Sequence record: OL539447.1
Source: Escherichia phage vB_ EcoD_Phleasolo
Length of the DNA stretch: 48,301 nucleotides
Strand: one strand, 5' to 3'
The position numbers and the translations under genes are program-made. Below are positions 5,519 to 47,858 of this stretch, piece by piece; position 1 is the first letter of the stretch, and each line of letters opens with the position of its first letter. The notes beneath the pieces were generated by a model, which searched no databases, had not been told where the DNA came from, and saw nothing but the letters and a program-made list of their open reading frames with translations.

Positions 5519-5535
5519 TTAGCAAAGCTAAACTA

Positions 5536-5559
5536 AACCTCCTCCGGGAGGTTTTTTTA
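5536..5559 (+). terminator. rho-independent terminator
   Basis: ACCTCC-TCCG-GGAGGT hairpin plus T7 run; near-identical copies at 6900 and 12870. Confidence 0.7.
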
Positions 5560-5602
5560 TGCCTGTAAACTGGTACAATTAGTTTCACTTTAAATCGGAG
5601 GA

Positions 5603-6895
5603 ATGAAAATGGCTAGCTTCTTGGAATTGGTAAGAGATAACATTGATAAGGGTTTAGCGACAATGCAGCCCGTTCAGTTATCAACTGAGTTTACTGCAAT
5701 TAAAGAGATTAGGGTAGCAACATCAATCACCACGCCACAAACAATATCAAGGAGTGATGAAACAAAGCTAATGTATACAACTTACGGGCTTGCTAACGTA
5801 GCTGGTGGTTCATACACAGGACAATCGCCAAACGGAGTCCAGATGAAGGTTGAGTTTATGACTGACTCAACTTTGTTCGAAATCAAAACCATCGGCTCAA
5901 TCGGCACTTACTCAATTTTTATTGACGGCAAACTGGTAAATGCTGATGCATTCGCTACGCCAAATGGAGAGGCGGTGAGCTGGATGCAAGTTAAAGCTAA
6001 TGACGGAGTTATCAGCGGGAAACTTCGACACGTTGAAATCTACGGCATCAACTCAGCATTCGGAGCCTTCGTGTTTGGTGCTGGCGACACGGTTAGTCGT
6101 GAAATCTCAATCAAGCGCCCGCTTATTTATCAGATGGGTGATAGTTATACTTATGGAACTGGTGCTGGATTCAGGACTCAAGCTTACGGCTCATCTCCTG
6201 CCGTAAATGACTTCTATGCATTCACCAGGTCTCTTGGTTTTGATGGTATTGCTGAAGGAATTGGTGGATCAGGATGGAACTCAGCTGCCGGTCAGTATCC
6301 AATGTCTCGCGTGCAAACAAGGCTTGCAAAGCTAAATCGCAAGCCGTCAGTTATCTCCTGGGCGCTTGGATATAATGATGCCGCTGCCATCCTGACTGGA
6401 ACAAATAGCCAAAAGCTACTAGTTTCGATGGGTGAGTGTCTCGCTGAGACTAGGAAGGTTTATAGTGACGTTCCAATCATCCAGATTAGCAGCGCAACGC
6501 CGAAGGGAATTACCACTGGAATTCAGAAGGTAATTGATTTGGTTAATGGTTTTTGTTCTGATAACGACATTCCAGTAATTAACATAAGTAGCTATGTTAC
6601 TAATGCTAACTCGGCAATTTATACAGGAACAGACAACGTTCACCCGGGAACTCTTGGCCATGAGTTTAGGGGAATGGCAATGGCTCGCGAGGTTCTGCTT
6701 GCAGCCTCGGGTCAGAAATCACTAACAGTCCCAGTTACGCCGCGTGCATTTAACGTGGTAGCAAGGCTGACTAAAAGTTTTGGAGTTACAATCTTCTCTG
6801 GTGTAGTAAATGCTATTGATGAGAATGATGTTGCCGGACAGCTATACTTGCAGACTGGTGCTCGAGTGGAAATTCTCTCAGTATCTCGCGCCTAA
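5603..6895 (+). CDS. SGNH/GDSL hydrolase-domain protein (esterase/deacetylase-like)
   Basis: 430 aa; C-terminal domain carries a GDS block (YQMGDSYTYGTG) and a DxxH block (DNVHPGTLGH); own TGGTACAAT extended -10 and flanking terminators. Confidence 0.55.
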   Translation: MKMASFLELVRDNIDKGLATMQPVQLSTEFTAIKEIRVATSITTPQTISRSDETKLMYTTYGLANVAGGSYTGQSPNGVQMKVEFMTDSTLFEIKTIGSIGTYSIFIDGKLVNADAFATPNGEAVSWMQVKANDGVISGKLRHVEIYGINSAFGAFVFGAGDTVSREISIKRPLIYQMGDSYTYGTGAGFRTQAYGSSPAVNDFYAFTRSLGFDGIAEGIGGSGWNSAAGQYPMSRVQTRLAKLNRKPSVISWALGYNDAAAILTGTNSQKLLVSMGECLAETRKVYSDVPIIQISSATPKGITTGIQKVIDLVNGFCSDNDIPVINISSYVTNANSAIYTGTDNVHPGTLGHEFRGMAMAREVLLAASGQKSLTVPVTPRAFNVVARLTKSFGVTIFSGVVNAIDENDVAGQLYLQTGARVEILSVSRA

Positions 6896-6899
6896 TATC

Positions 6900-6923
6900 A
6901 AACCTCCTTCGGGAGGTTTTTTA
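6900..6923 (+). terminator. rho-independent terminator
   Basis: ACCTCC-TTCG-GGAGGT hairpin plus T run. Confidence 0.7.
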
Positions 6924-6976
6924 TTGCTCTTTTTCTGTTAGACTGTCAATGATTATTAACCAATCAGGAGATAAAG

Positions 6977-8488
6977 ATGGCTTACACAGAAATTGCTATG
7001 GCGGTAGGGAATTCACCTGAAATCTTAGCCAGGAACGTAAAAATGATGATGTCATCTGGATTTCAGCCATATGGTGACGTCCAGATGCTAAGCGGCACTC
7101 TCTTTGGCATGAAAATGGCCAAGGGAACAGCAAACAACGTTGAAGACTTTATGGTGACATCCGACACCACAGTTCAGGGATTGATTAACAGGGTTAACCG
7201 ATATCTTTTGCAGGGCTGGAAAAGGTTTGGCAATGCTCACTTTGAGGATGGAGCATATCTTTCAGCACTTGCGAAAGGTGATTTTGTAAGTGATGAAGAC
7301 GGAGGCTCAGGTGAAGCAGGCCCACAAGGTCCGATTGGTCCACAGGGTCCAGCAGGTCCCGCAGGCGCAGCTGGTCCGCAAGGTCCTCAAGGTCCAACTG
7401 GTGCAACTGGCCCAGCGGGTGCGGCAGGTGCTAAAGGTGACACTGGCCCACAAGGTCCGGCAGGTCCGCAAGGTCCTCAAGGTGAAACTGGCGAGGCTGG
7501 TCCATAGGGTCCTATCGGCCCAACGGGCGCCACAGGTCCGGCTGGCCCAAAAGGTGATAAAGGTGATGCAGGCCCAGTTGGCCCGGCAGGATTAACTTTC
7601 CGCGGGATGTACGACGCAGCTACTGCTTACGTTAAAGATGATGTGGTTACATTCAATAACTCTAGCTGGTTTGCTACCGCCGCTGTGACCGGAGAGAATC
7701 CAGATGTTAGCGATTCCTGGGAGTTGCTGGCCGCGCAGGGCGCTCCAGGTCCGCAAGGCGCAACTGGTCCAGCAGGCCCAACTGGCCCGGCAGGCCCTGC
7801 AGGTATTCAGGGACCTCAGGGAGAGAGAGGGCTTCATGGTGAGCAAGGTCCGTCAGGCCCGCAAGGCTTGCAAGGTGCAGCTGGTCCAGTTGGACCTCAA
7901 GGCCCAGCAGGTCCTCAGGGTGAGCGAGGAATACAGGGTCCGGTTGGCCCTCAAGGATTGCAGGGTGTAAAAGGTGATCCAGGCGTTAATTCTACATATA
8001 CACTACCTTTAAAAAACTACCTTGTAATAGCCCTTAATGAAGAGGAGGGGGCGAGGCAGACATTCAGGGTGCCAGAAGACAGTTCGGGAGCTGAAATAGC
8101 TTTTGTGGTCAGAAATAAAGATTCTTCAAACACTTCACCATCTGGAGTTTATGAGCTGGGATGTGGAGTGACTGGTACGGCTTCAATGCACTTTTCAGGT
8201 TGGATTATTAGTAACCTTAACCAACCAGATAAAATAAGATCAGCCTCTATGCTAATTGCTTCCATGACTAATAGTCAGCGATACTTTACGCAGTTAGCAA
8301 TAGGAACAAGGGGTGATCTTTTTAAAGGTTGCTTAACCAATCAGGAAACTGGTGAGCTATGGTACATTGAGGCTTTTGGTACCAAGCCAAGAGGGGCAGG
8401 GCAAACCGACTTAGGTAGACTCTCAGTTAAGATTGAGAAAAGAGTTGATACAGTAGTTGGAAGCTTAACAAAATTCCCAAGAGTTTAA
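6977..8488 (+). CDS. collagen-like (Gly-X-Y repeat) protein with a globular C-terminal domain, interrupted by an in-frame TAG at 7505-7507
   Basis: Two same-frame ORFs (6977-7507 and 7607-8488) separated only by one TAG; Gly-X-Y repeats (GPQGPAGP...) run through the stop in perfect register. Confidence 0.6.
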
Positions 8489-8528
8489 GCTTTGCTCAAG
8501 GATGAGCACCCATGCATTGATATAGCTA

Positions 8529-8556
8529 TTGTCCCAATCGAAATCTCGTGTATAAT
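8529..8556 (+). promoter_or_regulatory. sigma70-like promoter with extended -10 (TTGTCC-N16-TG-TATAAT)
   Basis: Hexamers read directly from sequence upstream of the capsid gene. Confidence 0.45.
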
Positions 8557-8594
8557 TGACACGTAAACTCATAAACAAAAGGATGCATCTTAAT

Positions 8595-9542
8595 ATGACT
8601 ATCAAACTTGACGCTTTCGAGCAAGAAAAGATTACTAACCACCTGCGCGCTATGGGTGTTGATAAGGCTGATGCGGCTGGTATCTGGACTGTTAAGCAGC
8701 TCACCGCAAGCCTGAATAAAGCTTACGAAACCGAGTACGACCAGAACTCCGTAGTAAATCTGTTCCCTGTAAGTAATGAAATCCCTGGCTACGCTAAATA
8801 TTTTGAGTATCCGGTATTTGATGGCGTAGGTATTGCTCAGATCGTAGCTGATTACACTGATGACCTGCCGCTGGTTGATGCCTTGGCAACTGAACGTCAG
8901 GGTAAAGTTTTCCGCTTCGGTAACGCTTTCCTGATTTCCATTGATGAAATTAAAGTTGGTCAAGCTACCGGTCAGTCTCTGTCTACTCGCAAGCAGTCTC
9001 TTGCTTTCGAAGCTCACGACAAGCTTCTTGATAAACTGGTGTGGTCCGGCTCTACTGCTCACGGCATCCCTAGCGTTTTCGACTACCCGAACATCAACAA
9101 CGTTGTTAGCGCTGGCTCATGGTCTCAGCCAACTACTGCGGTAAGTGATATTACAAGTCTCTTGGATATTATCGAGACTTCAACCAATGGTCAGCACCGT
9201 GCGACTCACCTGCTTCTGCCTACTACCGCTCGTCGTATCATGCAGAACCTGGTACCTGGCACTTCTGTTAGCTACGGTGAATTCTTCCGTCAGAACAATA
9301 GCGGCGTAACAGTTGAGTTCGTTCAGTACCTGAATGATTACAATGGTTCTGGCACCTCTGCAGCTATCGCTTATGAGAAAGACCCTAACAACATGGCAAT
9401 CGAGATTCCGGAAGCGACTAACGCACTGCCGGCTCAGCCGCGCGACTTGCACTTCCGTGTTCCGGTAACTTCTAAAGCAACTGGCTTGATCGTGTATCGT
9501 CCTTTGACCATGGCTGTAATGAAAGGCATCACCTTCGCGTAA
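8595..9542 (+). CDS. major capsid protein
   Basis: 315 aa from the ATG at 8595 (ORF track opens at 8556); strong promoter upstream and strong terminator downstream, central in the head module; start choice uncertain. Confidence 0.6.
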   Translation: MTIKLDAFEQEKITNHLRAMGVDKADAAGIWTVKQLTASLNKAYETEYDQNSVVNLFPVSNEIPGYAKYFEYPVFDGVGIAQIVADYTDDLPLVDALATERQGKVFRFGNAFLISIDEIKVGQATGQSLSTRKQSLAFEAHDKLLDKLVWSGSTAHGIPSVFDYPNINNVVSAGSWSQPTTAVSDITSLLDIIETSTNGQHRATHLLLPTTARRIMQNLVPGTSVSYGEFFRQNNSGVTVEFVQYLNDYNGSGTSAAIAYEKDPNNMAIEIPEATNALPAQPRDLHFRVPVTSKATGLIVYRPLTMAVMKGITFA

Positions 9543-12171: not shown

Positions 12172-12196
12172 AGCCCCTTCACAGGGGCTTTTTTTA
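12172..12196 (+). terminator. rho-independent terminator
   Basis: AGCCCCT-TCAC-AGGGGCT hairpin plus T7 run. Confidence 0.7.
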
Positions 12197-12238
12197 TGTT
12201 ATAATTTCAACTCAAACAAACACGAGAGGATTATTTAA

Positions 12239-16265: not shown

Positions 16266-16269
16266 ACTA

Positions 16270-16291
16270 AGACCCTACGGGGTCTTTTTTA
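16270..16291 (+). terminator. rho-independent terminator
   Basis: AGACCC-TACG-GGGTCT hairpin plus T run. Confidence 0.6.
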
Positions 16292-16304
16292 TTGGAGAAA
16301 TATC

Positions 16305-17069
16305 ATGGCAACGCCATTAAGCACTAAGTTTGAGAATCAATTACAAAGCTTGTTCCCTGGTGAGGTCGTTACGCTTATCGAGGTTGACGGAGGAAAGTTT
16401 GGCGCACCAGTTTACCGCTTTCATGGGGAGAATATCAGCTATACGCCAGAAGAAATCATGATGGCACAATCAACAGGTCAGCCACTGCCAGCAAAGGCAA
16501 TCACTTTCCGTGGAGAAGAGTATGGCGCAAGGCCTTTTGGCATTCAGGGTATTAACATGACTTCTGACGGCAAGGCAAACAAGGTAACTCTGGTTGTATC
16601 AAACGTTGACCAGAACATCTCGGCGCTCATCCGCACTTATAATGGTCTTGTTCAGGCTAAGGTTACTATCTGGATAACCCTTCGTGAGAATATTAATGAA
16701 GATGGCACCATTGCTGATGGGGATTACCGTAAGCTAGTTTACTTCATTGAGCGACCTAAGCAGGTTGACTACAACACGGCGTCATTTGAACTAACTAGCC
16801 CAATGGATATGGATGGTATCTACATTCCGGCTCGACTTGTTCAGTCTGTTTGTTATTGGGCACAGCGCAATCAGTACCGCTCAGGGAATGGATGTAACTA
16901 CATGGGCAATCGATACTTCGATAAGGACAACGTGCCTGTGACTGACCCATCCCAAGACTTCTGCGCCGGAACGGTGACCGCCTGTAAGTTAAGGTTTGGA
17001 GCTAACAATCAATTAGACTTTGGCGGTTGTGCGGCTGCAAGTCTGCAAGCGAAAGCCAACCAGAACTAA
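16305..17069 (+). CDS. minor tail protein (lambda L-like)
   Basis: 254 aa with a Cys cluster near the C-terminus (CYWAQ...GNGCNYMG...CAG...C...C), consistent with L-type tail tip proteins. Confidence 0.65.
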   Translation: MATPLSTKFENQLQSLFPGEVVTLIEVDGGKFGAPVYRFHGENISYTPEEIMMAQSTGQPLPAKAITFRGEEYGARPFGIQGINMTSDGKANKVTLVVSNVDQNISALIRTYNGLVQAKVTIWITLRENINEDGTIADGDYRKLVYFIERPKQVDYNTASFELTSPMDMDGIYIPARLVQSVCYWAQRNQYRSGNGCNYMGNRYFDKDNVPVTDPSQDFCAGTVTACKLRFGANNQLDFGGCAAASLQAKANQN

Positions 17070-18462: not shown

Positions 18463-18469
18463 AATTACA

Positions 18470-18492
18470 ACCCGCCTAGTGCGGGTTTTTTA
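18470..18492 (+). terminator. rho-independent terminator
   Basis: ACCCGC-CTAGT-GCGGGT hairpin plus T run. Confidence 0.6.
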
Positions 18493-18503
18493 TTTAGTGT
18501 AGA

Positions 18504-22255: not shown

Positions 22256-22947
22256 TGGCTGATTACGGAGCTTTTATAGATGTAAATGGAAATCCATTCA
22301 TAACGCCACTATCAACACCATTCGCACTTTACTCAAAAGGAACAATCGCATCAGGTAATGTTAACAACACCCAGTATGCTGATAGATATGTTGACATTCC
22401 TCTCAATGTTCCAGTGATAGCTTTTTGCAAAACGACAAACACAAACAATGGTACAGCTTTGTCAGCATTCACATTTAGGGAGGGATCCAACATTGGAAAG
22501 ATCTACTTTCAGGGTGTTAATCCAGCAAATCAGGCGTTTGTTATGACGTACTACATATTTGCGATATTCCCACAGACTCTACCTGATTGGGGTATGGCTA
22601 TATGGGATGCGCAGGGTAAATTGATACTTACAAATGAAACAAAGGTTCTTAGCGACCTAGCAACAATTGGCACGCCAGGTTATCAATCTGGTGGTTTAAA
22701 TATAGACGTAACATTGCAAGGAAGTTGGGCCGTGGTTCCAACAACCCTGGGGAATAGTCAGATACAAATAGGAACGCTACCAACTGGTCAGCCAGTTATA
22801 ACAAATGCGACAGCTGGAACATCCTGCAGGTACAACGGAGTGCAGACAAGAATAAACGCGCAGTCAACACGTGGCTCTGGAAATGTGTTAAGCACAACAA
22901 ATAACGGAAATGTAATAACAGCAATTAACACATCAGCATACGACTAA
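22255..22947 (+). CDS. hypothetical protein (paralog B, possible distal tail/receptor-related)
   Basis: 230 aa from ATG 22255 (TAATG overlap with the previous gene); Thr/Asn/Gly-rich. Confidence 0.4.
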   Translation: MADYGAFIDVNGNPFITPLSTPFALYSKGTIASGNVNNTQYADRYVDIPLNVPVIAFCKTTNTNNGTALSAFTFREGSNIGKIYFQGVNPANQAFVMTYYIFAIFPQTLPDWGMAIWDAQGKLILTNETKVLSDLATIGTPGYQSGGLNIDVTLQGSWAVVPTTLGNSQIQIGTLPTGQPVITNATAGTSCRYNGVQTRINAQSTRGSGNVLSTTNNGNVITAINTSAYD

Positions 22948-22967
22948 GCCCCTTTCGGGGCTTTTTC
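22947..22967. terminator. bidirectional terminator between convergent genes
   Basis: AGCCCC-TTTC-GGGGCT hairpin followed by T run. Confidence 0.6.
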
Positions 22968-22971
22968 TTTA

Positions 22972-23193
22972 TCAACCTCCACAATCGTGGTCTTTAAAAT
23001 TCCGCTCAGAGACGTACTGAAACGAGAATGGATATCCGGCCCTAAGTAAAAACTCCTCACCGCGCTTCTGCGTGCCAAAAACATAAACAGAGTAACTCAT
23101 TCCGCTTGACTCATAAATCGCCGTACAAGTGCGCTCCGGCATCGTAGAGCACCCGCCTAACGTCATTGCTGCGATAACGATTAATTTTTTCAT
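22972..23193 (-). CDS. cor: Cor/Llp-like superinfection-exclusion lipoprotein
   Basis: From the ATG at 23193: MKKLIVIAAMTLGGC... signal peptide with lipobox; 73 aa, Cys-rich; on the opposite strand right after the tail fibre genes; SD AAGGTG upstream. Confidence 0.55.
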   Translation of the reverse strand: MKKLIVIAAMTLGGCSTMPERTCTAIYESSGMSYSVYVFGTQKRGEEFLLRAGYPFSFQYVSERNFKDHDCGG

Positions 23194-23203
23194 CTCATTC
23201 ACC

Positions 23204-23308
23204 TTAGAAACCGTTAAAGTTTGAAGCCAGCAGCAGAACCCAAACGAAGAAGCTGGTAGTTGCTACGCCGAAGATTGCAGAGATTAAGTTAGTGGTTAAG
23301 TTAGTCAT
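23204..23308 (-). CDS. small hydrophobic peptide (34 aa), first gene of the cor-like operon
   Basis: MTNLTTNLISAIFGVATTSFFVWVLLLASNFNGF; SD AAGGA 7 nt upstream; below the ORF-track size cutoff. Confidence 0.3.
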   Translation of the reverse strand: MTNLTTNLISAIFGVATTSFFVWVLLLASNFNGF

Positions 23309-23896
23309 TTTGTATTCCTTAGTAAGTATGTTTCGTTTCGATGGAGTAACTATAGCAAAGGCTTCAGCGGTAGTCTTTAGCAAATCGTGCTATTTGATAT
23401 ACGCGTAACCGATGTAACTCGATGTATACAATCTCATCCGCGGAAAATTGTATACGCTTTTTTACGCGCAGATACGCATTAGTTACATTTATAAATCCTT
23501 ATATAATAAGGTTTTAGAGTAGTATTATTATTATATATATTACTATGTATATCTTGTAACTACTCTCTATAGCTATGTTGGTATGTTTTTCTAAAAGACT
23601 ATGTTTGATTTCCTGTTAAGGAGGAAATGCATATAGATATAGATAGGGTGCAAAATTGGTGGATACATTGGTTACAAGAGTTACATTCAGCATCCATGCG
23701 GCCTAGAGACTAGCAAGGCGTATTTAGGTGCGTTTTACACCGATATACAAAATAGCACGATTAATCAAAACGGCTGCTTCTTGATTGGGTATAGTGCACT
23801 CATCGGCAGCAATGGTGCTGCGTCTATCTACCAAAAAATGGTAGATACAAATGAAATAGCTCCTCAACTTGAGGAGCAAGGATAAGAGAGAAGATA

Positions 23897-27387: not shown

Positions 27388-27398
27388 TGTAAAATATA

Positions 27399-27422
27399 AA
27401 GCCCCTTTCGGGGCTTTTTTTA
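27399..27422. terminator. bidirectional terminator
   Basis: AGCCCC-TTTC-GGGGCT hairpin flanked by an A run and a T7 run; between convergent ssb and tail fibre genes. Confidence 0.7.
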
Positions 27423-30032
27423 TATTGCTCTAACCTGCCACCTTTTATCATAAAAGTGAGCAAATCCACTATATGTTAATTTAAGGTGGCAAAGGAATGT
27501 GCTTACCGATGCAGTTGGTGTTAAAATCCTCAGGAATGTCTGACCACCAGTCACGTACTTAGTAATAGAAACCCCATCAAGAGAAGTGCTTTTTGAGCCA
27601 GTCGACTTAGCTATCTTGTTATACCAAGGTATTCCTGATGAGACATTGGCCTTAGTGCTTCCAGATAAGCTAAATTGAATAATACCTCCTGATTCCTGAC
27701 CGCCTAATCCATTCTTATTAATTGGTATAAGGCTCAACTCTCCAGCAATAAATGTTGACCCATACCTGGACTCCTCACCAACTGTAGTAAGAAGGATATC
27801 AAGCGCCCTGTTATAAGGCAGCAATAAAGTAGCATCCTCAGTTCTGACCTGATTGAAGTCCATTCCACTAGTAACATGAACAGCAGATAACGTAGTTCCG
27901 TTATATGAGTTCCTTGCTTCAACTGGTGACTCGCCATATGTCACGTTGCCAACTTTAGTGCTCCTCAACGTGCTCTTTGAGAATGAACCAGTGTATTGAC
28001 TGTTAATAATCCTGAAGTCATCACCAAAATGAACAGAGTTACCTTCTGCAGTTGGGTTTGAAATGGTGTTTTCCATAATCATCAAGGCGTAATCAGACTT
28101 GAAATAACCATCGCTAAAACGTATCGATCCAACTGGCATTCTACTTTCATTAGCTGGCAATTTTATCATCCTAAGGACTCCAGTGTTCATGCTTGATTGA
28201 ATCCAGCAAGAAAACCCCTTTACATCAAATCCAAACTGATCGTCATCACCACCATAGTCGGAGAAATCAAATACAGTATCTCCATTAACACCCTCAACCC
28301 CAGCACCTACGATATTAACAGACCTTAACTGGCCACCAATCTTGTGTGGAGTTAAGCAACCATCAGCAGCTATGTTTGTCGCAGTGACATACATAACAGG
28401 AAAACCACCAGCTACAGGCTCCAGGGTTGTTGTGTTAATGCCGTAACCCCAAAGAAAGCCAACATCACAGTGGTGTGCCCATACAGAATCAAGGGCGGTA
28501 CTTGTATTACCTGAAAGTCCAATGCCGTATGTGCAATCGTACATGTATACATTTGAAATTTTAGAAACAAATGTCAGTGTTGATAATGCATACTTGTAAT
28601 GATAAAACTCAACGTTATCTATTGTGTACTGCTTGCCGCCACCACCTTGACCTGAGTCATTTCCGCTAATTAGAGGTGAGCCGTTATAATCAGCATCTGC
28701 GTTCCTGAAGCCAATGTTTTTAACAAACATATTGTGACCCCAAGGCGAAACAATGAAGCCACCATTGCCAGATGTGTAAATCAAACACCTCCTAGGAGTT
28801 GCTGTACCTTCAATCCTAATTGTCTGTCCTGAGAACCTCTCACCAGATACGTTGACCCTTGTTGTGCCAATGTAGATAGGCCTATCAATGAGAATCTTCT
28901 TGTTTAATTTGATTGATGCTGTGTAGCACTTCTGCATAGCAACGCCATCGTTAGACACGCCAGTCAAATCAGCGGCGCCCATGCTTGGTGCTTTTGGATA
29001 TGGCGTACCTTGGATTGTATTTCCATCAATATATGGCGCGTTCATCAGAGCACCAAACATCATTGGTGACAAGCCTTCAATCAATGAAAGATCTCGCTTC
29101 CATCTGTGGTTTCCGGTAGTGACAATAACAACACCATCATCATCTGTGCTGGTTGAATCATTGGCATCGTAATAGAACCAGCCACCGCCAAGCATGCTAG
29201 TCCCTGAGTGACTAGATACATAAACCCGCTCACCGTCACGAAGTGGCACCAAGCCCCTCAAAATAGATAAGTTATCAACATTACGATCAGCAAATGACAA
29301 AGGCACCCATCCAGAAGATGAAACCCCTCCAGTTGACTCAGGGGTTGAGTTAGCCGGGACGGTTTTAGGAAGCGCGCCCGCCCAAATGTAAGGGACAGCA
29401 ATACCAGATGAAATGTCAATTACCTGTTGAGTTGCTGATTGAATAGTTACGCCAGACTGAAATGAGCCAATGAGAGCACCAGAAACTGACTGAGCTGCTG
29501 ACTCAGCACTTTGAGCAGAGGATGCTGCGTTAGATGCACTTAAACCCGCTGCATCCCTCGCCGCCTCAGCTTGAGATAATGAGGACTGAACATCTGCCTT
29601 ATCTGCCGATACTTGCAAGGCATCACTGGCAACCTGCTGAGACTGGTTGTTTACGTTTGTGACATTTTGCTGGAATGCATCAGCATCAAACTGATTAAAA
29701 GCATCAACAGCTGCTGCGACTTCAGTCTCATTTGACTGATAGTAACGCAAGGTTTCAGCAACATCCTGAGCAAGTCCCTGAACAGTAATCCCGTCGTGAG
29801 CAAGAATTGAGTACTGAGTACCAGTCGGAGCGGTAAATCCCTTGTCGTTAAAAACTCGAATTTCGGTATCACTGATTATTTCAGCAATGGTAACAATACT
29901 TGCTGGCGTGGTATTGAAAATCATTGTTGCGCCAACTCGAATTAGAGTTAACGGCTGCCTCCAGGTAGTACCAACACCAGTTACAGTTCCGTCAGCTGCA
30001 AGCGATGCTGTTCCCGCGTCATAAATTGCCAT
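27420..30032 (-). CDS. tail fibre / tailspike protein (possible beta-helix depolymerase domain)
   Basis: 870 aa; Ala/Ser/Gln-rich shaft segment (SQAEAARDAAGLSASNAASSAQSAESAAQS) followed by a large Gly/Asn/Thr-rich domain. Confidence 0.6.
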   Translation of the reverse strand: MAIYDAGTASLAADGTVTGVGTTWRQPLTLIRVGATMIFNTTPASIVTIAEIISDTEIRVFNDKGFTAPTGTQYSILAHDGITVQGLAQDVAETLRYYQSNETEVAAAVDAFNQFDADAFQQNVTNVNNQSQQVASDALQVSADKADVQSSLSQAEAARDAAGLSASNAASSAQSAESAAQSVSGALIGSFQSGVTIQSATQQVIDISSGIAVPYIWAGALPKTVPANSTPESTGGVSSSGWVPLSFADRNVDNLSILRGLVPLRDGERVYVSSHSGTSMLGGGWFYYDANDSTSTDDDGVVIVTTGNHRWKRDLSLIEGLSPMMFGALMNAPYIDGNTIQGTPYPKAPSMGAADLTGVSNDGVAMQKCYTASIKLNKKILIDRPIYIGTTRVNVSGERFSGQTIRIEGTATPRRCLIYTSGNGGFIVSPWGHNMFVKNIGFRNADADYNGSPLISGNDSGQGGGGKQYTIDNVEFYHYKYALSTLTFVSKISNVYMYDCTYGIGLSGNTSTALDSVWAHHCDVGFLWGYGINTTTLEPVAGGFPVMYVTATNIAADGCLTPHKIGGQLRSVNIVGAGVEGVNGDTVFDFSDYGGDDDQFGFDVKGFSCWIQSSMNTGVLRMIKLPANESRMPVGSIRFSDGYFKSDYALMIMENTISNPTAEGNSVHFGDDFRIINSQYTGSFSKSTLRSTKVGNVTYGESPVEARNSYNGTTLSAVHVTSGMDFNQVRTEDATLLLPYNRALDILLTTVGEESRYGSTFIAGELSLIPINKNGLGGQESGGIIQFSLSGSTKANVSSGIPWYNKIAKSTGSKSTSLDGVSITKYVTGGQTFLRILTPTASVSTFLCHLKLTYSGFAHFYDKRWQVRAI

Positions 30033-31110: not shown

Positions 31111-31593
31111 TTACTCTTTAGCTTTTCGTGCTGCTTCATTAGCTGCTTTAATTTTACGCCAAGAGCGACACTCTGGTTTGGTAGCTAACTCAGCATCAGT
31201 AACCACGCGCAGCATGTGACGCTTCTTGCAGCGCAGAGTAAGTGGCTTGCCGTTACCATCAAATTGAAGGTCTGGACGGCAGAATGTAGCGCGGAACCCT
31301 TCGCCAGTTCGCTTGTATCGATTGTGAGCAAGCTGGGCGCCACGTGCCGACATCATGCCGCGATTAAACCACTCCTCAACAGCCTGTCGAGTAACCTTTA
31401 ATTGCTTCGCCATATTAGCCTTGCTGCCGTAGAAGTCTAAAACAATCTCAAGCCTCGCCCTTAAACCCGCTCTTACTTCATCCTTTAACACATAGTAACC
31501 TGACGGTCGTTTGCGAGGTTTTTTGTCTTCTGTTCGTATTGTTCCGTTATTACCGTTAAGGGTACGCTTATCAATTTCACACACTTTTATCAC
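31111..31593 (-). CDS. putative HTH DNA-binding protein
   Basis: 160 aa, basic, with an HTH-like segment MAKQLKVTRQAVEEWFNRG; GTG start at 31593. Confidence 0.35.
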   Translation of the reverse strand: MIKVCEIDKRTLNGNNGTIRTEDKKPRKRPSGYYVLKDEVRAGLRARLEIVLDFYGSKANMAKQLKVTRQAVEEWFNRGMMSARGAQLAHNRYKRTGEGFRATFCRPDLQFDGNGKPLTLRCKKRHMLRVVTDAELATKPECRSWRKIKAANEAARKAKE

Positions 31594-39367: not shown

Positions 39368-40951
39368 TCACCCCAGCAGTCGTGGATTAATGTAAACCTT
39401 ATCACCAATCAGGCAGGTGTAGTTTTTCTCATCAAGCATCGGAAGTAAATGGTCTTTAATCTTAGCCATTACGCCAGCCTGAGCCTCAAACGGTCTAACC
39501 TTACGTGCCGCTTCATAGAGTGATCGCAACCCCACCACTCCTTTACTGTTCTTTCCTTGCTTAATAAGAATATCAATTAGCTTGTTCATCTCTGCATTAT
39601 CACCAGCGTGACCAGCAGCATTAGCGGAAGACAAGTAAGTCTTACTCAGTTCTTCAAACATAAGAAGAGCTTCTTGCATCGTTTCAAGCCCAATCTCCCT
39701 GGACTTCTGCGGACTCCCTCCGTTTGGATTAAACCAGTTACGGATAGTGTGAAGAACTGCCGCTATCCTGATTACCTGCTTATCCATTTTACCTAACGCT
39801 CCGCGCAACATTGTGTGCGAGTACTTACCGCCATCTGCAAGGTGCGGCTCCATTTCCTGACGAGCACGGTTGAGGTGCTTCATTGCTGAATTACTGACAG
39901 TTAGTTTTACATCTTGCTCGCTCATTATTTCATGAACAAGACGAAAGTAATCTGCCTTTAATCCACCATCAATTGGTTTATATGTTGACTCGCCCTCATC
40001 ATCAACAAACACACGCTCACCAAGGAATGACTTCTCGCGCACAAGAAGGAAACGCTCTGATACACCGATACCGCGAGCGCCAGCATTCATGATTGCGACG
40101 ATTGTTTCATCCTGCGCAATTACAGAAATGCAACCCATAGCAATAAAGCTCATGTTGTTCTCTGCGTTCGCACGCGCGATAGATACGTTACCAGCATCCC
40201 AGGCCTTCAGAACAAGTTCGCTGTTAGTTTTCTTCGAGCCATCACCGTAAGTCATACCAAGAAGTGAGTTAACACTTGTCGCTTCATCAGAAATCACGGA
40301 GAAGTTGCCCTGGCGGTTGTTGATTCGCGCAAGACCTTCCGGGGTAGTATCAGATACCGGAAACACAATGTCGCACAGCTTTTCTAACTTCTCTTCCAAC
40401 TCCTCTTTATCTTCGAATAATCCAGCCATCTCAGATGGTGACTTCTCTTGCTTCATTTCTTTTGCCAGGGCTGACAATTTAGCCATAATCTTCTTACGGT
40501 CACGCTTGCGTAATTCGTTCAATCGCTCAGTCTCAGCAATCATTGGCGCTAGTGCGAGTGAGTTAATAGCTGACTTACCAGTTGATGGAGGCTGACTGGT
40601 TACTACGTACAGCGCGGTAGGCTGCTGAGTTCCATGATACTCAACCGTAAAGCGACCAAGCATTGCTGCTGAAATACACCCAAGGAAGTGCATGTAAGCT
40701 GAAGACTCTGGGAACTGAACTGAGCGTGCGATATTGCTTGATAATTTACCAACGACATCACAATCATTTCCTAGCGAGATGACCGGATATTTGTCACCAG
40801 TTGAATCAATTTCTACCGGAGCCTTCCAGAATGATGCACTCTGTCGATAACCATTGGCATTAATAGCAACTCGCAATGGTGGTAAATTTTCAGCTGCCGC
40901 AACAGACATTACTTGTTCGACTGATAATTTATCTTCGTTAAAATCAAACAT
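39368..40951 (-). CDS. P-loop NTPase (replication/defence-associated, family unresolved)
   Basis: 527 aa; Walker A-like SQPPSTGKS and Walker B-like FSVISDEA; its termini have a paralogous copy at 43257-43928. Confidence 0.45.
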   Translation of the reverse strand: MFDFNEDKLSVEQVMSVAAAENLPPLRVAINANGYRQSASFWKAPVEIDSTGDKYPVISLGNDCDVVGKLSSNIARSVQFPESSAYMHFLGCISAAMLGRFTVEYHGTQQPTALYVVTSQPPSTGKSAINSLALAPMIAETERLNELRKRDRKKIMAKLSALAKEMKQEKSPSEMAGLFEDKEELEEKLEKLCDIVFPVSDTTPEGLARINNRQGNFSVISDEATSVNSLLGMTYGDGSKKTNSELVLKAWDAGNVSIARANAENNMSFIAMGCISVIAQDETIVAIMNAGARGIGVSERFLLVREKSFLGERVFVDDEGESTYKPIDGGLKADYFRLVHEIMSEQDVKLTVSNSAMKHLNRARQEMEPHLADGGKYSHTMLRGALGKMDKQVIRIAAVLHTIRNWFNPNGGSPQKSREIGLETMQEALLMFEELSKTYLSSANAAGHAGDNAEMNKLIDILIKQGKNSKGVVGLRSLYEAARKVRPFEAQAGVMAKIKDHLLPMLDEKNYTCLIGDKVYINPRLLG

Positions 40952-42107: not shown

Positions 42108-42160
42108 TCAGGGCTGAATGGTCATTAGCAAAAAGTGCTATTCGTTCGATTTATGGATTG

Positions 42161-42257
42161 TTGCAGATATTGCAATGATTCACTTCACTATTGCATGTAT
42201 AGCAATATTGCATCGATTGCAATGATTTTCTGGACTGTTGCGAAATTTGCAATGATT
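42161..42257. repeat. iteron-like array: three or four copies of TTGCR-N5-TGCAA, each followed by TGATT
   Basis: Copies at 42161-42175, 42191-42205 (degenerate), 42208-42222 and 42238-42252, in the divergent intergenic region. Confidence 0.6.
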
Positions 42258-42682
42258 GATGGATTGATGGAATGAAGGAGGGCGCATCAACTAGTTGGTT
42301 GGTTTTAGCTTACACGAGGAGCTTTCCTTTATATACGCGTTATGGCTTGTTCAACCGTGTGGAGAAATTGCCATATTTACGCCATCCACGCCAGTTTACG
42401 CGCTGGTTACAAAATAAATCCCTTATATAACAACCTTTTAGATTTATTATTATTATTATTATTATATATGTTATCCCGTAACCATGATTATCCAAGATAT
42501 TGGTGATATTTTTTTGATATTGCGCGGCGCATAAAGATTTAGATAAAGAGATAGGGATGCAAGTGGGGTGGAGAAAATGGCTTAACAGACCATAACGGCA
42601 ATAACAGCCTTGATATGACTAGCGTCAGCATGTAACAATTTAGCATAACGTGCGATTACTGAGTTGAACGTGTAAATAATGC

Positions 42683-42710
42683 TTGCGACATTCACCCATC
42701 ATGGTAAGAT
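42683..42710 (+). promoter_or_regulatory. sigma70-like promoter candidate (TTGCGA-N16-TAAGAT)
   Basis: Hexamers read directly, about 30 nt upstream of the 42742 start. Confidence 0.3.
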
Positions 42711-42741: not shown

Positions 42742-43257
42742 ATGAGTAATACAATTCGTGAAGCAAACCCGACACTTGGCGACCTGGTGCGCCACCTTGT
42801 TAAGATGGCACTCAATTCAGAGGATGGAAGCGTAACAGTTCCCGTTAAGTTGCTTTACAAGAATCTTTACGGAGAAATTGATAACGGCTATGTAGCAGCC
42901 GACTTTAGACCTGGCGGCAAATATTCACTTCCAAAGCTTAAGGCTTCCTATGTTTCAAATACAGCCAGTAGAATGCAGGAAGTTAAAGACGCAGATAAGC
43001 GCGCAAGGTTCTCTTGTGGAGAGATGGATTATAATGGTGATGAGCATTATTGCGTAAAAATCACAATGGTCGACGGAGCTGTTAAGAATGGAACCCGAGC
43101 TAAGACAAGCAGTCAATTAGAGGAGAAAGCGGTAAGCGAGTTTAAAGCCAGGCTACTTAAGCTTTCCCCTAGCGTTGCAGGCATGAGTGGTGATGAACTT
43201 AAGGGCGCGGTAACTATGATTAACGCATATCAGGAAATGATTAAGGAGACTAAATAA
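42742..43257 (+). CDS. hypothetical protein
   Basis: 171-aa ORF with RBS GAGAGGAG; first gene of the rightward terminal unit. Confidence 0.4.
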   Translation: MSNTIREANPTLGDLVRHLVKMALNSEDGSVTVPVKLLYKNLYGEIDNGYVAADFRPGGKYSLPKLKASYVSNTASRMQEVKDADKRARFSCGEMDYNGDEHYCVKITMVDGAVKNGTRAKTSSQLEEKAVSEFKARLLKLSPSVAGMSGDELKGAVTMINAYQEMIKETK

Positions 43258-47756: not shown

Positions 47757-47858
47757 GCTCACGTTGCTAATGTTGGCCTAAGGGTGGAGCTTATACCTCC
47801 ATAAAGCAATCACCAGATAAGTGATGTAACGCAGGTTCGATTCCTGCCGTGAGCACCA
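47757..47858 (+). tRNA. tRNA-like element, non-canonical length (identity unresolved)
   Basis: Canonical T arm GCAGG-TTCGATT-CCTGC, 3' CGTGAGC-A-CCA and a perfect complementary GCTCACG 102 nt upstream; two internal 5-bp hairpins; no clean D arm. Confidence 0.3.

Follow-up and report, generated by a model that had tools for sequence, protein, structure and literature searches.

What purpose is served by the two AT-rich intergenic regions at which the genes of Escherichia phage vB_EcoD_Phleasolo change direction? The DNA analyzed here (sequence record OL539447.1, 48,301 nucleotides, hereafter the window) is the complete genome of a T1-like siphovirus of the family Drexlerviridae, subfamily Rogunavirinae, which is kin to phages Opt-79 and Sadiya. 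Region A has leftward Cor and lipoprotein genes on one side and, on the other, the Rha, exoVIII, Erf and SSB genes, which are read rightward; region B separates a leftward block containing the gene of a 527-aa helicase from early genes read rightward, which continue into the terminase and structural genes. The original prediction on this DNA placed both regions at divergent gene boundaries, which is correct as gene orientation switches at each, and proposed that they share a duplicated non-coding module and hence their regulation. Here we surveyed the sequence, distribution and physical properties of these modules. They are an ancient, family-wide pair built around the least stable DNA of the genome, and we discuss whether they may serve as replication-origin-type elements, as a shared transcriptional control region or in some other way.

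Paralogy of the two regions

The regions (A, 23395-23750; B, 42143-42700) were compared by Smith-Waterman alignment against a null of 1000 dinucleotide-preserving shuffles. The alignment score was 71, the shuffles giving 22.0 +/- 2.8 with a maximum of 39 (z=17.6), and with the boundaries first proposed for the two regions the score was 70 (z=16.4). The similarity is therefore far better than that of shuffled AT-rich DNA, and the presence of a duplicated non-coding module in two divergent intergenic regions is confirmed. The aligned block (23464-23590 versus 42388-42515) has 135 columns with 100 matches, that is 74% of all columns and 83% of the ungapped ones. The shared stretch of about 90 bp is present as described, its proposed identity of about 80% being slightly generous since 76% was measured over 95 columns. 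The second block is also real (23630-23674 versus 42536-42584, z=3.95, a score reached in 8 of 2000 shuffles, p about 0.004), and an exact 10-mer, ATATACGCGT, is common to both regions further upstream (score reached in 5 of 2000 shuffles). As both the upstream 10-mer and block 2 are significant, the paralogy of A and B is collinear across about 280 nt. The 9-bp inverted repeat noted in region A at 23423-23456 was right within 1 nt: its arms lie at 23424-23432 and 23447-23455, are 100% complementary and have 14 nt between them.

Anatomy of the modules

The copies of related phages were aligned with those of the window phage type, giving 18 copies from nine A-type and nine B-type loci. The phages aligned were Opt-79, AHP24, AKS96, phiEB49 and Phagiculus (Rogunavirinae), Rtp, IME542, IME253 and JulesPiccard (Braunvirinae), CJ19 (Nouzillyvirus) and ETEP102. 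All 18 copies have one fixed order of elements on the + strand. It starts with ATACGCGT, which is followed by a variable dyad region (GTATAC…CCGCGG…GTATAC in A copies), by three TACGC-type units and an invariant GTTACA at a spacing of 9-10 bp, by AAATATC-TATATA, by A(T/A)CAACC-TTTAG, by an invariant (ATT)3-7 microsatellite, by TATAT and finally by ATGTATAT-TGTA(AC). The elements of the window are as follows.

23397..23406, + strand: 10-mer ATATACGCGT, A copy; its TACGCGT is near-invariant across the 18 aligned copies
23424..23455: inverted repeat GTATACAAT / ATTGTATAC, flanking a central CCGCGG (23438-23443)
23452..23487, + strand: phased array of A, with ATACGC at 23452, TTACGC at 23462, ATACGC at 23472 and GTTACA at 23482, 10 bp apart
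23488..23554: AT-rich core of A, with TATATA, TTTTAGA and a (TAT)4 microsatellite at 23523-23534
23555..23562, - strand: inverted partner TGTAACTA of TAGTTACA (23480-23487), 8 nt, 100% complementary, 67 nt between the arms
23630..23685, + strand: block 2, A copy (…ATATAGATAGGGTGCAAAATTGGTGGATACATTGGTTA), and GTTACA units at 23671 and 23680
42331..42340, + strand: 10-mer ATATACGCGT, B copy, an exact match to A
42377..42411, + strand: phased array of B, with TTACGC at 42377, CCACGC at 42386, TTACGC at 42396 and GTTACA at 42406, at spacings of 9, 10 and 10 bp
42412..42477: AT-rich core of B, with a (TAT)7/(ATT)6 microsatellite at 42445-42465
42471..42484, - strand: inverted partner TTATCCCGTAACCA of TGGTTACAAAATAA (42404-42417), 14 nt, 79% complementary
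42536..42584, + strand: block 2, B copy (GATTTAGATAAAGAGATAGGGATGCAAGTGGGGTGGAGAAAATGGCTTA)

At the level of sequence, both modules thus contain several short repeats in phase with the helix, as iteron-type origins do, and in both modules of the window phage an inverted GTTAC pair brackets the AT-rich core. The units of the Braunvirinae read GTTACG/GTTACG/GTTACA, from which a family consensus of (G/T)TTAC(G/A) was drawn. The full 9-bp inverted repeat is specific to the A copies of Rogunavirinae; Braunvirinae keep just GTATA..TATAC, and from the B copy of the window phage the repeat and its CCGCGG centre are deleted. Block 2 is kept in close relatives only. The (ATT)n tract is the most invariant sequence of the module, yet its number of units ranges from 3 to 7, and being invariant in sequence and variable in length is the opposite of how a promoter spacer behaves.

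Distribution and conservation

A search pattern was made from the invariant columns (GTTACA-N12-TATATA-N14-20-ATTATTATTA). Where 0 matches would be expected, the window has exactly two, both of them + strand matches (23482 and 42406), and in IMG/VR each related genome gives a module pair, always in direct orientation. The pair was found in Rogunavirinae, Braunvirinae and Nouzillyvirus, and diverged versions were found in T1 and TLS, so that the comparison with related genomes which had been suggested as a check bears the duplication out across several subfamilies. In T1 (Tunavirinae) the B-equivalent gap has a diverged module (nhmmer E=3e-6) with AAATTACGCC twice and then a long TA tract, and the A-equivalent gap has flanks rich in GTTACA/TGTAAC around an AT core. 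In TLS (Tempevirinae) the two equivalent gaps (28760-29117; 49708-49902 together with 1-588) are paralogous to each other (ACAAAAAGAACAAA, ATCCGGCGTA, TATATAATA…) and have GTTCAC/GTGAAC words on both sides of an AT core. This paralogy and these words contrast with the TLS re-annotation, which states that origin-type repeats occur nowhere in the TLS genome (PMC11447400). No DNA similar to the modules was found in plasmids or E. coli genomes, and homology of the modules to plasmid or chromosomal DNA was rejected for this reason.

Module A with its left flank (23286-23572) is 80.8% identical in nucleotides to Rtp, whereas ordinary genes reach 66-74%; its conservation equals that of the best-conserved genes, which are those of the 527-aa helicase (81.3%) and of a gp23-like helix-turn-helix (HTH) regulator (80.7%). 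Over a 120-nt core the identity of A and B within one genome is 62-66% in Rogunavirinae and 73-79% in Braunvirinae-like phages, and that of A with A across subfamilies is about 75%, which indicates that the duplication is ancient. Such strong constraint, together with conservation as a pair, implies recognition by one or more common trans-acting factors.

Among the closest relatives, a 601-nt query from region A was 100% identical to Klebsiella phage vB_KpnD_Opt-79 (OL539453), Escherichia phage Opt-719 and Sadiya, and a 661-nt query from region B was 100% identical to Opt-79 and 99.7% to Opt-719. The two control regions are 99.7-100% alike in three records of 48,301-48,303 bp from three host genera, namely Klebsiella (Opt-79), Escherichia (Opt-719) and Serratia marcescens (Sadiya); this comparison covers the control-region stretches only. 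A further array was seen in an unrelated phage contig of 82 kb from IMG/VR (3300022696_000117), where 8280-8610 holds at least 15 GGTTACA/TGTAACC words in both orientations around a (TA)n(ATT)5 core, in a non-coding gap of about 450 nt beside SSB and dATP/dGTP diphosphohydrolase genes. No proteins shared between this contig and the window were found and the contig was partly selected by the search pattern, so it is only an architectural analogy, an iteron field with the same hexamer.

Duplex stability

Nearest-neighbour duplex stability was computed genome-wide in 30-, 50- and 100-bp windows. At all three sizes no other segments of the genome are as unstable as the two modules (z 4.4-4.9, against at most 3.4 for non-module DNA), and in each of the four genomes profiled the two segments of lowest stability are these two gaps or their equivalents.

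Region A: 50-bp window 23501-23550, z=4.70; 100-bp window 23478-23577, z=4.91
Region B: 50-bp window 42424-42473, z=4.82; 30-bp window, z=4.80; 100-bp window, z=4.37
Rtp, equivalent gaps: z 4.3-4.9, next segment at most 3.6
T1, equivalent gaps: z 5.3-5.9, next segment at most 3.6
TLS, equivalent gaps: z 4.6-5.1, next segment at most 3.6

Next to the phased repeats each module therefore has AT-rich DNA of the very low stability that is expected of the DNA unwinding element (DUE) in an iteron-type origin. As this low stability persists in T1 and TLS despite their diverged sequence, low stability itself appears to be under selection.

These data also bear on the simplest view of the modules, that they are conserved linker DNA, either junctions for the recombination of cassettes or a relic of an ancient duplication that is kept by gene conversion. 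The flanking cassettes do vary, with Rha replaced by rtp46-like genes on the right of A and varying cor and lipoprotein genes on its left, and the higher A-B likeness of Braunvirinae (73-79%) as compared with Rogunavirinae (62-66%) would suit gene conversion. However, the 81% identity to Rtp exceeds that of most genes, the conservation is structured by motifs and not uniform, and the low stability is retained in T1 and TLS without sequence identity, unlike what neutral relics or homology patches would do. We consider linker DNA quite improbable.

Repeated words and host-factor sites

The unit word KTTACR is enriched in both regions, with 8 occurrences against 0.83 expected in A (P=3e-6) and 6 against 1.3 expected in B (P=0.002). 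An unbiased search was done of all GC-containing 6-mers that occur at least twice in both gaps. GTTACA/TGTAAC was the top 6-mer common to both gaps in the window phage (P=1e-7) and in T1 (P=7e-11); the shared word of TLS is GTTCAC/GTGAAC instead (P=4e-5), and the top word of Rtp is the palindrome TCCGCG(GA) (P=1e-9). In its longer form, T(T)CCGCGGA(A), the Rtp palindrome was counted 5 times in gap B (60-545), 2 times in gap A (27918-28259) and 16 times in the genome. Its centre, CCGCGG, is also found in the A module of the window (23438-23443).

Regions A and B have no perfect DnaA boxes (TTWTNCACA) and no GATC sites, and one-mismatch DnaA boxes are at chance level; an origin of the DnaA/oriC type was rejected on this basis. 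None of the LexA, CRP or TyrR-like boxes fits when judged by eye. The prediction of IHF sites did not hold up well: the perfect consensus WATCAANNNNTTR has no match across the whole genome, region A has none within one mismatch, and the core of B has a single one-mismatch match, at 42428. In the alignment a perfect IHF consensus (TATCAACCTTTTA) was seen in the A copies of Braunvirinae only. If the modules were sites of host nucleoid proteins (IHF, Fis, H-NS), that is bendable AT-rich DNA which organises or silences the divergent promoters with no phage-specific recognition, their extreme AT content and these IHF matches in Braunvirinae and in the B core would be accounted for. The lack of such a match in module A of the window speaks against it, as does the lack of similar sequence in E. 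coli chromosomes or plasmids, and it would leave unexplained the invariant TACGC, GTTACA and ACGCGT, the 10-bp phasing and the replacement by GTTCAC in TLS. This explanation seems unlikely.

Candidate binding proteins

Two proteins of the window phage are candidate binding partners of the modules.

39368..40951, - strand: gene of a DUF3987 MCM-like superfamily 6 (SF6) helicase, 527 aa (Pfam DUF3987 E=5.5e-42)
31111..31593, - strand: gene of the gp23-like Cro/YdaS-type HTH regulator, the alternative candidate partner

The helicase gene lies 1.4 kb left of module B and belongs to the block of leftward genes beginning at region B. Since no solved structure was matched by the helicase in a sequence search, its fold was compared instead. 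Its AlphaFold2 model (pLDDT 88, pTM 0.86) has a C-terminal winged helix at residues ~451-522 with the order alpha-beta-alpha-alpha-beta-beta, and of the 50 Foldseek matches listed for the PDB each is an MCM subunit or an MCM-containing complex at prob 1.00, except one ORC/Cdc6 entry at rank 39 (prob 0.47). DUF3987 proteins are described as MCM-like SF6 replicative helicases with a C-terminal winged HTH domain (PMC4889955). Nearby genes encode a Zn-ribbon primase, a Cro/YdaS-like HTH protein and an SF2 helicase, and the primase of the T1 family is annotated in the T1 record as similar to P4-type alpha primases.

Transcription signals

The promoter-like elements around and inside the modules are given below; DR stands for the direct-repeat type discussed after the list.

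23373..23394, - strand: leftward DR-type promoter-like element (ATAGCAC-N4-TTGCTAAAG), left bound of module A
23752..23795, + strand: rightward DR-type promoter-like element (ATAGCAC…, with TATAGT at 23790-23795), upstream of the Rha-family gene, right bound of A
42121..42142, - strand: leftward DR-type promoter-like element, left bound of region B
42683..42710, + strand: weak sigma-70-like TTGCGA-N16-TAAGAT, 8/12 matches, before the DUF7174 gene at 42742, right bound of B
23513..23541, + strand: weak sigma-70-like TTTAGA-N17-TATATT in the core of A
42437..42465, + strand: weak sigma-70-like TTTAGA-N17-TATTAT, its -10 hexamer inside the microsatellite of B

The DR elements (ATAGCAC-N3-5-TTGnTAAA(A), oriented with the downstream gene) flank the modules, and none lies inside the shared block. 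The leftward element of A has a -10-like TATAGT about 39 nt downstream on the minus strand and was assigned to the lipoprotein and Cor genes. The site at 42683..42710 was seen in the sequence and is below the 9/12 threshold of the scan. A 21-nt direct repeat, aaATAGCACnnnTTGnTAAAA, is known in the T1-like phages TLS, T1, Rtp and Rogue1 with no function assigned, and the paper describing it does not contain the AT-rich modules (PMC11447400). This repeat resembles the modules in being non-coding, conserved and present in the same genomes, and its copies directly flank both modules; it differs from them in sequence, in its number of about 15 window copies and in that each copy points the same way as the gene downstream of it and precedes TATAGT and a CATCGAAACGA leader.

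+ strand copies of the 21-nt repeat: 2182, 23752, 26193, 31598, 33994, 35536, 36824, 37089, 43925, 45577, 46453
Minus-strand copies of the 21-nt repeat (n=15 in all): 23393, 41028, 41464, 42141

The repeat (ATAGCAC-N3-5-TTGnTAAA) is itself part of a unit of about 64 nt, and its TAGCA-N5-TGCTA is a dyad. In the unit the repeat is followed, often, by a short GC dyad, then by TATAGT about 20 nt downstream and by the leader CATCGAAACGA just before the ribosome-binding site. From its layout the unit looks like a family of factor-dependent promoters.

No sigma-70 site with at least 10/12 consensus positions lies inside either module, and strong sigma-70 promoters within them were rejected accordingly. 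Position-weight-matrix scanning was done on 31 unique copies mapped to alignment columns. It gave a single positionally conserved site, a rightward TTTAGA/TTTACT-N16-19-TATATT (TATTAT in B) of about 8 bits that is found in 77% of the 31 copies and is effectively absent (0.8 bits) from the B copies of IME253, ETEP102, ESCO41 and CJ19. The same scan gave no conserved site for a leftward promoter. The leftward GTTACA-N19-TATAAT annotated in AHP24 was rejected by eye, its spacing varying over 15-21 nt and the site not being kept in B copies. For the proposal of shared regulation this means that its basis stands, namely a duplicated, constrained and family-conserved module, and that transcriptional operators are just one of two live readings; it is weakened because the flanking units own outward promoter-like elements and no strong sigma-70 promoter lies within the modules.

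A possible replication origin or control region

An origin would be expected to combine what is seen here: phased repeats that have an inverted partner, the lowest duplex stability in the genome, a place between divergent promoters, exceptional conservation, two copies per genome and a nearby helicase gene. The anatomy appears to fit a replication origin at least as well as operators. We tentatively read the modules as paired paralogous cis-acting elements of the replication-origin type, analogous to oriL/oriR of Bacillus phage SPP1, and would put the chance of this at somewhat under even.

In such an element a sequence-specific protein would occupy the four phased (G/T)TTAC(G/A) units on one face of the helix and the inverted GTAAC beyond the core. 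The binder would most likely be phage-encoded, with the DUF3987 helicase (through its winged-helix domain) and the gp23-like HTH protein as candidates. Its sites bracket the AT-rich core of about 65 bp with the (TAT/ATT)n microsatellite, where the duplex is least stable, and divergent transcription from the outward promoter-like elements may generate negative supercoiling at the core, following the twin-domain model, so that the core melts and helicase and primase may enter. B, near the helicase operon, might initiate replication by analogy with SPP1. A, near the exoVIII-Erf-SSB operon, might be a second origin, or a site of fork stalling that leads to recombination-dependent synthesis of concatemers. 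In its most specific form, which we hold to be rather unlikely, the proposal is that these are the origins of T1-like phages, where the MCM-like helicase is directed by the GTTAC repeats and loads on (ATT)n, with theta initiation at B and fork stalling at A leading to concatemers. The 3-nt period of (ATT)n would correspond to the step of AAA+ filaments on single-stranded DNA, which is also 3 nt, by analogy with the DnaA-trios of bacteria.

Several observations weigh against an origin. The repeats are made of degenerate units of just 5-6 bp, and among the phage proteins no classical initiator was recognised (lambda O, SPP1 gp38, Orc1/Cdc6, Rep). Module A adjoins the exoVIII-Erf-SSB operon with no replication-initiator gene adjacent. 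The GC skew tracks the coding strand and is uninformative on the location of an origin, and the A/B identities are ambiguous evidence for homogenisation or co-evolution of the two copies within lineages. AT-rich tracts between divergent promoters are common in regulatory DNA, one rightward sigma-70-like site is positionally conserved, and the phased repeats, centred at about -63 to -95 of the predicted start of this weak site, would also suit an array for a class I activator.

The main rival, a sharper version of the shared regulation first proposed, is that the modules would be a shared transcriptional control region, with the phased units as operator or activator sites and the AT tract as an UP element or spacer. 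Its binder would come either from the phage, as a regulator (the gp23-like HTH protein, or Rha), or from the host, as an OmpR/PhoB-type response regulator with a winged helix, and the weak TTTAGA site would be the early rightward promoter, of the recombination operon at A and of the early/late rightward operon at B. Both modules lie at divergent points with the same polarity relative to the rightward genes, and the (TAT)7 tract of B gives a TATTAT hexamer at a spacing of 17 nt. T1-like genomes have few good sigma-70 promoters (PMC11447400), so their early promoters must lie somewhere. Against this, the conserved site is weak at about 8 bits, its -35 matches 4/6 positions, its spacer varies over 16-19 nt, and it is essentially gone in the four B copies named above. 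The best-conserved bases are those of the spacer microsatellite and not of the hexamers, T1 and TLS keep the low stability but neither the sequence nor the hexamers, the flanking genes own promoter-like elements, and a conserved leftward promoter is lacking. We regard a control region as possible but doubtful. The origin and control readings could both hold, since transcription often activates origins.

Region-B repeats and packaging

Region B also carries a repeat cluster that is not part of the shared module.

42150..42257, + strand: three ~31-nt repeats ending in TTGCAATGATT (42170, 42217, 42247), region B only, outside the shared module

Base 1 of the T1 record, the start of its annotated 2.8-kb terminal repeat, maps into the equivalent of this cluster, and base 1 of the Rtp record maps to the same cluster at window position 42201, both placements being read from record coordinates, not from end-mapping data. 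The stretch 42121-42200, which comprises the DR element and the TTGCAATGATT stretch, is the most conserved stretch, with 91% identity to Rtp. From these sequence features 42150-42257 is a likely candidate for the pac region, where the small subunit of terminase would be recognised, about 6 kb upstream of terS.

Since the T1 and Rtp records begin inside region B, with the annotated terminal repeat of T1 running from base 1 in the B-equivalent gap, the modules themselves might be taken for packaging (pac) signals. The ends, however, fall in the TTGCAATGATT repeats, upstream of and separate from the shared module, and region A has no such repeats. We also know of no report of a second pac 19 kb away in T1-like phages from the literature on headful packaging of T1. 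That the modules are packaging signals is highly improbable.

Small RNA and small protein

A product of the module itself was also considered, either a small RNA of about 45 nt, running from about 23548 to the T-run at 23586-23590, or a small protein encoded by the 28-codon open reading frame (ORF) 23627-23713 (MHIDIDRVQNWW…). A T-run follows the core in many copies; the ORF has AAGGAGG upstream, an equivalent ORF is annotated in AKS96, and the B copy allows the reading MQVGWRKWLNRP, in which W and L are similarly placed. On the other side, Rfam matched only two tRNAs at 47.7 kb, the predicted folds of the putative transcripts are not more stable than those of shuffled sequences (z +0.25 to +1.7), and conservation between subfamilies does not extend downstream of the core. 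Phagiculus has a broken reading frame, AHP24 has lost the Shine-Dalgarno sequence and the substitutions are non-synonymous. A small RNA or terminator downstream of the core and the small ORF were both rejected, and we find an explanation of the modules by either of them hardly credible.

Comparison with known systems

SPP1 is likewise a virulent siphovirus of the pac type, and its two paralogous cis elements also lie kilobases apart, combine direct repeats with an AT-rich unwinding element and include one element in a long intergenic region bracketed by transcription signals. About 13 kb separate oriL from oriR, both of them bound by gp38, and the proposal for oriR is that it stalls forks, which are then restarted by exonuclease, annealase and SSB (PMC6316719, PMC3485210). 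The restart model has a parallel in the window, where module A directly precedes the exoVIII-Erf-SSB operon. Unlike SPP1, the window phage has no gp38 homologue and no sequence similarity to the SPP1 elements, and its modules are putative origins. A DnaB-type helicase with a loader serves SPP1, and the window phage has a primase apart from its MCM-like DUF3987 helicase; gene 38 contains oriL, whereas both modules of the window are intergenic between divergent promoters.

Opposed words of 5-8 bp flank an AT-rich melting region in the origins of SV40 and papillomavirus, in the ori of Staphylococcus aureus pathogenicity islands (SaPI) and in archaeal origins, where two origin recognition boxes enclose the unwinding element (ORB-DUE-ORB). 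Origins served by initiator helicases or MCM proteins rely on an AAA+ helicase with a winged-helix domain, and more than one origin per replicon is found on archaeal chromosomes and in some of these elements. In the window phage, by contrast, no Orc1/Cdc6, no origin-binding domain of the LTag/E1 type and no SaPI Rep homologue was identified, the array is a direct and phased one of four units on the left and not symmetric, and binding by the winged helix of the helicase is hypothetical.

The satellite phage P4 has two separated cis regions, ori and crr, which carry the same short repeat TGTTCACC and are bound by the alpha protein. Alpha is a single polypeptide with primase, helicase and DNA-binding functions, and crr is a 120-bp tandem duplication. 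In the window phage these functions are split between proteins, and no homology of the cis DNA to that of P4 was detected. The TLS word GTTCAC resembles this alpha-protein iteron, TGTTCACC.

Arrays of OmpR/PhoB sites, such as F1-F3 of ompF, are head-to-tail repeats with 10-11-bp phasing upstream of an AT-rich promoter region, and OmpR half-sites contain words like GTTACA/TTTAC. The modules differ from them in the TLS word GTTCAC, in the inverted partner past the AT core and in having no similar DNA in E. coli; a role of OmpR would be putative.

No description of the modules was found in the accessible literature, and the papers on Rogue1, AHP24 and the BASEL collection are silent on them. For T1-like phages the literature gave no usable transcription-start, RNA-seq or origin-mapping data, and the SU57 paper found no origin (PMC7718038). 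The kind of element is familiar; what is new is its pairing across the family, the (ATT)n core and the association with an MCM-like helicase.

Other features of the genome

Three further observations were made outside the two regions. The collagen-like (Gly-X-Y) structural gene at 6977-8488, a homologue of Rogue1 gp21, has one in-frame TAG (7505-7507, codon 177). This stop lies inside a repeat run (…GEAGP*GPIGP…), after which the Gly-X-Y frame goes on for 327 more codons, and it could be a nonsense mutation, a sequencing error or a case of programmed readthrough. At 47757-47855, beside tRNA-Arg(CCU), there is a second tRNA-like gene that matches the Rfam tRNA model with 42.7 bits and has a 33-nt insertion in the D-arm; its anticodon loop is CAGAUAA (GAU, Ile), and ARAGORN made no assignment. 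A family of terminators with a GC stem and a T-run punctuates the late operon, and many of them directly precede TTATTGGAGAAAT, the context of a ribosome-binding site. This layout agrees with the 'transcripton' organisation described for T1.

Late-operon terminators: 562-599, 2632-2669, 5529-5560, 6894-6925, 12172-12209, 16268-16305, 18463-18494, 22946-22972, 27393-27425

Significance of the modules

T1 belongs to the classic set of seven T phages, and members of the Drexlerviridae count among the coliphages most often met in therapy collections and in fermenter outbreaks. The modules provide two precise targets of about 150 bp each for the questions of the replication origin and of early control in this family. 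Should they prove to be origins, they would reveal the way in which a bacterial virus loads an MCM-like helicase, and they would be the second case, after SPP1, of paired origins in a siphovirus of the pac type. If they are operators instead, they would define the early regulatory switch of the family. Either outcome would be useful for phage engineering, in the design of minimal replicons, in the choice of safe insertion sites and in the sparing of essential cis elements.

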